DNA from: a virus
Taxonomy: Duplodnaviria > Heunggongvirae > Uroviricota > Caudoviricetes
Virus record (IMG/VR): IMGVR_UViG_2851938318_000014
DNA: 40,035 bases
Direction: 5' to 3' (one strand)
Of the stretch, positions 36,001 through 39,000 are shown one piece after another (the first letter of the stretch is position 1; each line of letters opens with the position of its first letter). A program made the position numbers.

Positions 36001-39000
36001 GTTTGCCAAAAATGGAAAGGAGAACCCGGTGGTGTGATTGCGGAATGTCATGTTAACTGCCTGGTTGAAACAGATGTTCAGGCTTATGCAAACGCTGAAT
36101 TTATTGCTGCCTTTAATCCAAATGTTGCGCTGGCGCTTCTGGATGAACGGGAAAGAAACCAGCAATACATCAAACGCCGCGACCAGGAGAACGAGGATAT
36201 TGCGCTTACGGTTGGGAAGCTGCGCGTTGAGCTTGAAGCAGCAAAATCAAAACTCAACGAGCAGCGCGAGTATTACGAGGGAGTTATCTCTGATGGGTGC
36301 AAGCGTATTGCTGAACTGGAAGCGCGGGAAGTTCAATTACCGACTCGCTACGACCTTCGATATGGACACCCGATAAATGCAGATGAGCGACAAGTCATGA
36401 TACCTAAAGAAAATGGCAGTTGGCTTTACCTGATTGACCTAGAACACGCATTACGCGTCGCTGACATTCGCATCAAAGGTGAGTGATATGGCGTTAACAC
36501 ACCGCGAACTCTGTCAGATTGCGTACAAGTTCCTTAAGCGCAACGGTTTCAAGGTTTGTTTTCATGACCGCTTTATAGCTGTAACCAGTACCGGAGAACA
36601 GCCAGATGCTATGGGATTCAGAAATTCAGCATCATGCCTGATAGAGGCGAAATGTTCTCGTGCTGACTTGTTGGCAGATAGAAAAAAGCGTTTTCGTAAA
36701 AATCCGTCTCTTGGAATGGGCGACTGGCGATTCTTTATTAGTGAGCCGGGAATTATTTCAATTGAGGATTTACCACCTGGCTGGGGATTACTTCATGATC
36801 CCCAAATCCATAACAACGATAAGGCGAAGGCATTAAAGAGTGCTACTGAGCACACTCTCCAAGCCGTAGCGCGGAAATGGTTAGATGAGAAGGTAAAGAC
36901 ATCAGGTATCTCACAAGACCATGCAGCAGACATCTGGCGCAGCTTAGAGAGAAATGTCTTTCCCGGTCTGGGTAATGTCCCTATCAATGAGATCCGACCT
37001 AAGCTCTTAAAACAACACCTTGATCCTATTGAGCAACGAGGCGTATTGGAAACTCTACGCCGTATCATTTCACGTCTGAATGAAATCTTCCGGTGGGCAG
37101 CTACTGAAGAACTTATTGAGTTCAACCCGGCTGACAACCTTGGTCAAAGATTCAGTAAACCAAAAAAGCAAAATATGCCTGCCCTTCCCCCAAGCGAATT
37201 GCCAAGGTTTATGGAATCTTTGACGAATGCGTCAATCCGGTTGGAAACACGTATGCTAATTGAATGGCAATTGTTGACATGGGTTCGTCCGGGTGAAGCC
37301 GTTCGCGCAAGGTGGTCTGATATTGATACAACCAACAGCATTTGGAACATTCCTGCTGATTTCATGAAAATGAAAAAGCTTCACAAAGTTCCTTTGAGTA
37401 AAGAAGCTTTGCGCATCCTTGAATTAATGAAATCAATAAGTGGGCATAGAGAATGGGTTTTCCCCAGCATAAAAGCGCCTCTTAATCATATGCATGAACA
37501 AACAGCCAACGCAGCTATCATCCGAATGGGGTTCGGAGGCGAGCTTGTAGCTCACGGTATGCGTTCTATTGCACGAACAGCGGCAGAGGAGTCTGGTAAA
37601 TTCAGAGCTGAAGTTCTTGAGGCAGCGCTTGCCCACTCGAAAAAAGATGAAATTATCGCAGCATACAATCGTGCAGAATATCTGATAGAGCGACAGAGTT
37701 TGATGCAATGGTGGAGTGATTACGTTCAAGCTCAAAGATCAAATGCTCTGGTAGCCTAAGTATCAGAATAGCTAATATAATCCTGAAGGTAAAGAAAATG
37801 GAAACCCTATTCAAAGTTTTTGAAAAATTTAGTTCCAGACCACTTTTTTTTATTTTTTTCGGACTCTCACTTTGTGAATTTTTTCAGAAACAATCTGTTC
37901 TGATGAATCCATCAGCAGATAACATCGCGAAATTATTCGCAGCCATGATATTAGTTGTTTTTTTTACTTGGGGATTTGAATGGCTAATCTTCAAGTTCAA
38001 TGTAAACCTTGAACCTCATGATCAAGGCGATATTGGACCAACAATTGGAACGGCTACTTTAGCTGTATACTTAGTTTATGCCTTTCACTTTCTCAGTGAA
38101 AATCCTGAAGCATTAAATTTAAAGTTATTAACTAACTCTGGCTTTATATACAGCACAACTCTATTATTATTCTCATTAGAATGCATGAAGCTTAGAAGAC
38201 TTAAACAAAAATAAACAACATCATTGTGATGATAAATATAAAATAGGCATGGCGAAAAAAAAATCACCACGCCTAAAATATAATAATTATGGTAGCATCA
38301 TTGATACATAATCCACACCAATCCTTGAGCTATACTGAGACGCTATAGCCTGATATCTTTCTGCATAACCAGTTCTCAGTTGAGATTTAAGTTTGAGTCG
38401 GACAGGAACATTTTGCACGTTGCCATCCATATTACTTAAAAACACGGCAGAAATAATATTTTTTTCTTCGCCATCAACTGTTGTTCCATGATTCAACACC
38501 ACCATATAATCAACAACAGGAAGCGTTTTATCCCCTTCGAAAATAGAGAGATATTTTCTTTGATTTTTATGCATTACATATATATATTTCGAATGTTCAG
38601 CAAATGGCAATGCTTTACTCTGACTGGCGTTAAAAAGCTCCAGAACTTTAATGAGCCTGTGCGGACTTAATCTTACATGGTGAGGGTCGTTACCCTGAGT
38701 AGGAACCAAATCACATGCCGCAGATACACATAAATACCATTTGTTCGACTCTGTATCAAAGAAAATAGTGCCAGTAGAAATATGACCATCTTCAAAATTC
38801 TTTGAAGACAAATTCATATTTAAAGCATGATACATTTCGTGATAAGTATCATTATTTGATGGCAGATCCATTTTTGAAGAGCAATATTGGAGCAATGCAG
38901 CAACTCCGCTGTTAGCGTATTCATTTGAATAGCTATCAAAAACACTTTTGATAAATTCATCCAGCGTATTATTATTTTTAAGTCTTTGATAAAGCTCTTC

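Follow-up and report, generated by a model that had tools for sequence, protein, structure and literature searches.

The closest described relative of the locus studied here is the cryptic prophage CP-1639, whose record, AJ304858.2, reportedly belongs to the study of Creuzburg et al. 2005 (Microbiology 151:941). The record annotates a cryptic prophage that is missing its integrase, together with an adjacent 'remnant integrative element' that carries a partial intA. The prophage is restated to be cryptic, without integrase and excisionase and with a neighbouring remnant integrative element, in PMC13596339, where 10-bp direct repeats are also reported for UTAK-22. For the Stx1a prophage that occupies ssrA in O111 strains, the right junction could not be identified in earlier work (PMC2323221).

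A second body of work concerns the loss of insertion sequences (ISs). The IS-excision enhancer (IEE), acting with transposase, excises IS629, in some cases precisely and in others with a deletion beside it. It shows microhomology-mediated end-joining (MMEJ) activity in vitro and occurs in O111:H8 (PMC9943667). The scars left by IS loss show microhomologies of 2–4 bp and deletion lengths near the length of the IS (reviewed in bioRxiv 10.1101/2023.06.07.543989, where hosts are also reported to differ by about 10^5-fold).

Here, we analysed a 40,035-nucleotide stretch of viral DNA (IMG/VR record IMGVR_UViG_2851938318_000014), hereafter the window, in which an initial annotation had singled out an open reading frame (ORF) that joins an MmcB-like phage protein in frame to a tyrosine integrase. 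We find that the fusion is ordinary genome decay at an already described locus, and that a known mechanism accounts for its in-frame form.

Results

A cryptic Stx1a prophage at ssrA

The window is 100% identical to positions 3168153–3208187 of E. coli RM9131 (NZ_CP028429.1), and the blocks that align between it and the CP-1639 record AJ304858.2 are 99.95–100% identical. It runs from smpB and ssrA, through a lambdoid prophage with stx1a and three large IS-associated gaps, to the hybrid ORF and the cargo of an island. The tmRNA gene ssrA, which is the attachment locus of both the prophage and a small integrative element, lies at 698–1060 on the plus strand (ARAGORN, PGAP). The match to a locus that contains the island only stops at 1064, and the cryptic Stx1a lambdoid prophage, of the CP-1639 type, occupies 1065–36795. 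Its tail end faces ssrA, while the early-left genes (an erf remnant, ssb, abc2 and ead) read towards the island.

Decay of this prophage is extensive. Its int and xis genes, the att copy on the island side and the cI/cro/N region have been lost, as have several of the tail genes and most of the gene for lysozyme; the PGAP annotation of the window lists no other int and no xis, cI, cro or N, in agreement with the early observation that no xis-like gene was evident. Two copies of IS629/IS1203, both on the plus strand and both without a target-site duplication, are present within the prophage. The first (12846–14154) is flanked by truncated tape-measure and gpU genes, and the second (33394–34704) lies between cII and the erf remnant, at the point where the immunity region is missing. 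PGAP does not flag the transposase coding sequence of either copy as a pseudogene.

A search of the window for a second ssrA 3' end, with up to three mismatches allowed, found none, and the downstream flank in RM9131 holds no ssrA 3'-end repeat of at least 9 bp. The 10-bp direct repeats reported for UTAK-22 were not found near ssrA. With no usable integrase and no att pair left, neither the prophage nor the island can excise. The initial annotation had proposed that the prophage was locked in place by a crippled integrase; it is indeed locked, but the cause is the wholesale loss of int, xis, att, immunity (cI/cro/N), tail and lysis (lysozyme) functions rather than any defect of the integrase.

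Anatomy of the hybrid open reading frame

The ORF is uninterrupted on the plus strand from 36479 (GTG) or 36488 (ATG) to 37759. Intact phage homologues start at the ATG at 36488, which gives a product of 423 aa consisting of residues 1–106 of a 171-aa phage protein followed by residues 89/90–409 of a 409-aa integrase of the P4/IntA type. Profile searches confirm the in-frame chimera: phrog_631, a phage family of unknown function, matches ORF residues 3–107 (E = 1e-66, profile positions 20–125 of 260), and positions 87–401 of the 413 in the NCBIfam integrase model NF007246/PRK09692 match ORF residues 107–424, with a score of 347.8 bits that lies below the whole-protein cut-off of 434. In the integrase half, Pfam recognizes the core-binding domain (Phage_int_M, PF22022, residues 128–221, E = 3e-23) and the catalytic domain (Phage_integrase, PF00589, residues 236–400, E = 2e-19). 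The Pfam scan found no Arm-DNA-bind domain (PF13356) in the hybrid, while Arm-DNA-bind_3 occupies residues 8–95 of the intact 409-aa homologue, so the arm-binding domain is missing, as was first suspected.

BLAST puts the DNA junction at 36795/36796, within the interval of 36795–36830 that had been proposed for it. Across the junction the window reads ...ACTTCATGATCCCC..., and positions 36796–36798 (plus strand) are TGA, a 3-bp microhomology at the deletion junction that is common to the left end of IS629 (TGAACC...) and to the island int gene (..GTTGATCC..). In the identical RM9131 region, PGAP treats 36797–37759 as an integrase pseudogene "missing N-terminus" and 36488–36666 as a frameshifted hypothetical pseudogene. 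Nine public contigs encode the identical 423-aa protein, which rules out an assembly artefact. A PADLOC scan of the hybrid ORF and the island cargo genes gave no meaningful match.

The N-terminal half derives from a phage gene

The segment at 36488–36795 (plus strand) is a 5' fragment (codons 1–103, reading on to fusion residue 106) of the gene for the 171-aa protein. DNA up to 36795 has 93–94% identity to many Stx phages and, for part of its length, 98% identity to phage P7. The corresponding gene of phage Lys12581Vzw encodes a stand-alone 171-aa hypothetical protein and is followed by approximately 6.6 kb of accessory genes and then by xis and int. The best 120 of the 219 homologues of the N-terminal part are 89–185 aa in length and lack a Pfam domain; all are stand-alone proteins and none is fused to an integrase. 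This rules out a native integrase N-terminus, the reading that had been set against the chimera when it was first described.

The name given to this half, MmcB-like PD-(D/E)xK protein, fares well at the level of fold and less well at the level of sequence families. Pfam and NCBIfam scans of the N-terminal 126 aa gave no match, and the intact 171-aa homologue had no match in Pfam. On the other hand, E37, D40, E53 and K55 are invariant across 32 diverse homologues, and the motif is retained in the window's copy. The best PDB sequence match of the homologue profile is 3DNX (SPO1766), aligned on the motif with an E-value of 0.19. Structural comparison pointed the same way: the AlphaFold model of the intact 171-aa homologue (pLDDT 86) yielded 3DNX as its top Foldseek match in the PDB (E = 1.6e-5, probability 1.0, TM 0.59/0.68), followed by the PD-(D/E)xK nucleases Hjc, HincII, R2 endonuclease and XisH. 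We take 3DNX to be a representative of the Pfam family 'MmcB-like' (PF06319). Judged by the predicted structure, the label is a reasonable one for the fold of the phage protein. The copy in the window keeps residues 1–106 of 171, and the strand at 108–113 and the C-terminal helices at 134–159 of the model are gone.

The integrase half belongs to a neighbouring island

From 36796 to 37759 (plus strand), the ORF consists of the 3' part of the island intA gene (residues 89/90–409 plus the stop codon), with the core-binding and catalytic domains only and 100% identity to the intact gene; this identity begins at nucleotide 267 of the gene, which is window position 36796. The intact element can be seen in FDAARGOS_1059, where it adjoins ssrA and encodes the 409-aa integrase, a 138-aa protein, a receiver-domain protein and an ATPase. 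In the window, the truncated gene is followed by island cargo of low GC content (33–36%), namely a 138-aa hypothetical protein that is hydrophobic by inspection of its sequence (37798–38214, plus strand) and a 582-aa protein with a Response_reg_2 domain (PF19192; 38287–40035, minus strand). Next in RM9131, just past the end of the window, comes a 572-aa ATP-binding protein.

A tblastn search of the window with three integrases matched only 36797–37756, in keeping with the single integrase reported at the outset. That gene had been read as the prophage's own integrase with a swapped N-terminus, and this part of the initial annotation has to be given up: it is the remnant of a 5'-truncated intA that belongs to a separate small ssrA element, since the window contains only one ssrA 3' end and a tandem layout is seen in phi467. 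In that Stx prophage record, a different prophage in the same orientation ends in an integrase-like gene of its own, which is followed by a 25-bp copy of the ssrA 3' end and then by an intact island intA. By analogy, this is the tandem layout that would be expected before the deletion.

The IS629 form of the junction is ancestral

In CP-1639 and UTAK-13, whose junctions were read directly, the sequence runs ...ACTTCA, then a 1310-bp IS629, then TATGGTGTTGATCCCC; in longer form, it is ...GGGGATTACTTCA, followed by the 1310-bp IS629 and by TATGGTGTTGATCCCCAAATCC.... At the corresponding points, the intact phage gene would read on ...ACTTCACGTTG..., and the intact island int reads ...GCAAATGGTGTTGATCCCC.... 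An IS629/IS1203 copy without a target-site duplication is located exactly at the phage/island boundary, and after it come 8 island bases that are absent from the window. This form is the prevalent one, with a one-IS-sized alignment gap at the junction in 25 of the 28 complete E. coli genomes that have the junction and none in the other three. All three IS629 copies in CP-1639 lack duplications and adjoin truncated genes, and duplication-less IS629 copies beside truncated genes are the signature of IS-mediated deletion.

The comparison also gives the direction of change. Since 8 island bases missing from the window are still present in the IS form, which moreover has no target duplication, the IS form did not arise by insertion into any IS-less allele; an IS that entered a pre-existing IS-less junction is thereby ruled out. 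The allele in the window is derived, and the change ran from the IS form to the IS-less form.

Five IS-less alleles were identified, each one deletion (1310–1318 bp, with a microhomology of 1–5 bp) away from the IS form. The deletion in SD134209 spans 1310 bp, exactly the IS, with the microhomology TTCAT, and that in 7-55 62A spans 1314 bp with TT; both leave the reading frame broken. The window's allele, that of RM9131, has lost 1318 bp (the IS plus 8 island bases) at the microhomology TGA and is in frame. Two further in-frame alleles each lack 1315 bp and give a 424-aa product: P0128 (...GL-YGV-DPQ..., microhomology A) and P0130 (...GLLH-V-DPQ..., microhomology TG). P0128 and P0130 are known as deposited proteins only, so that their DNA junctions are reconstructions in silico from the IS form, and they came from a protein database, which can show in-frame products only. 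Complete genomes show three IS-less alleles as DNA, and one of these (the window's) is in frame, which is the chance expectation; we put the in-frame outcome in the window down to chance. The only new detail that the locus offers is that the loss of IS629 has left five distinct scars at a single site.

A probable three-step origin of the hybrid

We consider it very probable that the ORF has no function and that it joins what is left of two pseudogenes, in a three-step process that includes an IS629 deletion and subsequent loss of the IS. In the first step, a lambdoid Stx1 phage would have entered ssrA on the upstream side of a small integrative element that was already resident there, to give the order ssrA, prophage, phage int, ssrA-3' repeat and island intA. 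No intact ancestor of the window's phage at ssrA was recovered, and this step is therefore modelled on phi467. A related O157:H7 prophage at ssrA that has the same DinI-side end is decayed too, and lacks the left arm and int.

In the second step, an IS629/IS1203 deletion, arising either through recombination of two copies or as an adjacent deletion, would have started near codon 103 of the phage MmcB-like gene and ended 88 codons into intA, taking out the remainder of the phage left arm (with xis, int and att), the ssrA repeat, and the attL and promoter of the island. The residue of such an event would be a single IS629 without a target duplication at the junction, which is the structure seen in CP-1639 and UTAK-13. 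One detail counts against the three-step account: a single T stands between the right end of the IS and the island sequence, at a position where the island has A.

In the third step, the RM9131 lineage lost this IS629 and the adjoining 8 bp of the island through a deletion of 1318 bp bounded by TGA microhomologies, most likely by transposase-dependent excision promoted by IEE and microhomology end joining. IEE is the likely agent of IS629 loss at this junction; the case is circumstantial, and is based on deletions that hug the IS ends and are joined at very short microhomologies, which match the descriptions of IEE. The gene is also at hand. The iee of O157 Sakai (ECs_1305) is approximately 100% identical in the O111:H8 strain 08-4347, and a 14.4-kb region around the 08-4347 gene is found at 100% identity and in one piece both in RM9131 (1180047–1194407) and in SD134209.

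The same scars could conceivably have formed without IEE, if short repeats led to the loss of IS629 by RecA-independent replication slippage or by illegitimate recombination. Slippage deletions, too, make use of repeats as short as the microhomologies seen here (1–5 bp). Nevertheless, all five independent alleles hug the IS ends, with 1310–1318 bp lost against an IS of 1310 bp, which fits initiation by transposase at the termini, and one and the same genome carries iee as well as the IS629 transposase. We consequently regard loss of the IS without IEE as unlikely.

Is the hybrid functional?

The hybrid is most likely a dead protein, given that its nuclease fold is truncated, its arm-binding domain is missing, and neither the attL of the island nor the att copy on the island side of the phage is left. 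IS629 has taken the place of the pL/immunity region, the normal driver of the operon in which the hybrid lies, and a promoter/terminator scan found fewer promoter-like sites upstream of the ORF than in shuffled controls. The ORF still has its native start codon, preceded by a Shine-Dalgarno-like GGTGA, so that some translation of the hybrid from read-through transcripts may occur.

That kept start and ribosome-binding context also speaks for a reading in which selection has favoured the in-frame fusion as a new protein with a function, such as a hybrid of nuclease and recombinase, or an integrase without its arm domain that binds the ssrA core and disturbs other elements that target ssrA. Such a role would fit with catalytic and core-binding domains that are 100% intact, with the retained PD-(D/E)xK motif residues, with the three different in-frame alleles and with the GenBank product name 'integrase'. 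We find it very improbable all the same. Of the three IS-less alleles found in complete genomes, two have lost the frame, the IS still breaks the ORF in 25 of the 28 genomes, and the protein-database source of the in-frame alleles biases the sample towards in-frame products. Furthermore, the nuclease fold stops after residue 106 of 171, with the loss of a strand and the C-terminal helices; the pL/immunity region that would provide transcription has been deleted, and upstream there is no promoter-like signal above chance. An equally slim chance attaches to the specific possibility that the arm-less hybrid, if expressed, would bind or nick the ssrA core and so block other phages and islands that target ssrA or destabilize the locus; were this true, a new exclusion factor would owe its origin to an accident of IS excision.

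A true site-specific integration of the phage into the island int gene is extremely unlikely: prophage-in-prophage integration is known in STEC (PMC8112680), but the phage breakpoint here falls in the middle of a conserved 171-aa ORF and not at an attP beside int, the prophage is without an integrase, a duplication-less IS629 stands exactly at the junction in most strains, and none of the 141 matched phage records has an attP inside the MmcB-like gene.

Discussion

Decay by IS629 deletion and IS loss accounts for the lack of an identifiable right junction (PMC2323221) and of an integrase in the Stx1a prophage that O111 strains carry at ssrA, a lack that makes stx1a a permanent part of the chromosome. 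Caution is advisable with GenBank entries for a 423-aa 'integrase' (AWZ53104.1 and others), which are fusion pseudogenes. The five scars at a single site document in compact form how an IS is excised in nature, with IEE as the probable driver, and the series could be of use in typing strains or in testing models of how ISs are excised. Beyond such bookkeeping, the significance of the fusion is small.

The locus is best understood beside the systems that it resembles. CP-1639 is the same as the window in its ssrA locus, prophage, island, truncated intA and phage gene fragment. It differs in having an IS629 between the two fragments and 8 more island bases, whereas the window has the IS-less form and an in-frame fusion. 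In comparison with integrases of the P4/CP4-57 IntA type, the hybrid has core-binding and catalytic domains identical to those of the intact 409-aa member beside ssrA, but it lacks Arm-DNA-bind_3 and the first 88 residues and has no att pair. The phage protein, through its intact homologue, resembles MmcB-like/SPO1766 (3DNX) in its top structural match and its D..ExK motif; it differs in matching no Pfam or NCBIfam model, and the window's copy ends at residue 106 of 171.

The described IEE-promoted excision of IS629 in EHEC (PMC9943667; bioRxiv 10.1101/2023.06.07.543989; PMC9397093) involves the same IS, with iee in the same genome. The junctions are also alike, with deletions of the IS length plus 0–8 bp, microhomologies of 1–5 bp and several independent products per site. 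The difference lies in the starting point, as the IS at this junction has no target duplication, so that even its 'precise' loss restores no gene.

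A decayed prophage carrying an intact stx1a operon

The stx1a operon (stxA1a and stxB1a) is intact and lies on the minus strand at 23528–24754 of the window, within a prophage that has no cI, cro, N, int or xis and in which the lysozyme gene survives only as a remnant (23043–23123). Stx1a cannot be released from this prophage by the usual route of induction and lysis.

Two IS629/IS1203 copies, at 12846–14154 and 33394–34704, each have a transposase annotated as an intact CDS, and neither is flanked by target-site duplications. The first stands in place of part of the tail module, between a truncated tape-measure gene and a truncated gpU, while the second occupies the position of the entire immunity and early-left region and is bordered by cII and an erf remnant. 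Separately, the replication-initiator (O-like) gene at 32005–32904 contains a 30-bp direct repeat with 66 bp spacing (32417–32446 and 32483–32512), detected as off-diagonal BLAST hits, which probably represents origin iterons.

IS629 at the phage/island junction

In the CP-1639 record (L001), a lone T (8806–8807) separates the right end of the junction IS629 from the island sequence, such that the base beside the element is T (TATGG), compared with A (AATGG) in the intact island int. This T generates the TTCAT microhomology, the one used by the ‘precise’ excision allele. In UTAK-13 (L008 2924–4137), a second IS1203 sits inside the already truncated island int and splits the gene further. We conclude that IS629 activity at this ssrA prophage/island locus is still ongoing.

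Cargo of the small ssrA island

The island cargo genes extend from 37798 to the window end at 40035 and on to position 41755 of the RM9131 locus (L003), and are low in GC (33–36%). They encode a 138-aa protein, hydrophobic as judged from its sequence, a 582-aa protein with a Response_reg_2 domain (PF19192) and a 572-aa ATP-binding protein that is histidine-kinase-like. Comparison of the cargo proteins with the PADLOC defence models yielded no meaningful match; these genes may form a conflict or defence module of an uncharacterised kind.

The 90%-identity protein cluster that holds the 423-aa chimera has as its representative the unrelated 138-aa protein encoded downstream, and its members are mostly copies of that protein. 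The clustering procedure seems to have produced this grouping artefactually, and the names that clusters give to the chimera are unreliable.

Comparison with O157:H7

The ssrA-side end of the prophage (1065–1946) includes a DinI-like gene (1332–1580) along with small remnants of capsid and tail-fibre genes. A counterpart with 97.4% identity adjoins ssrA in O157:H7 strains, where the DinI-side end borders a different, equally decayed prophage (L010) that carries the effector genes espM2 and espW.
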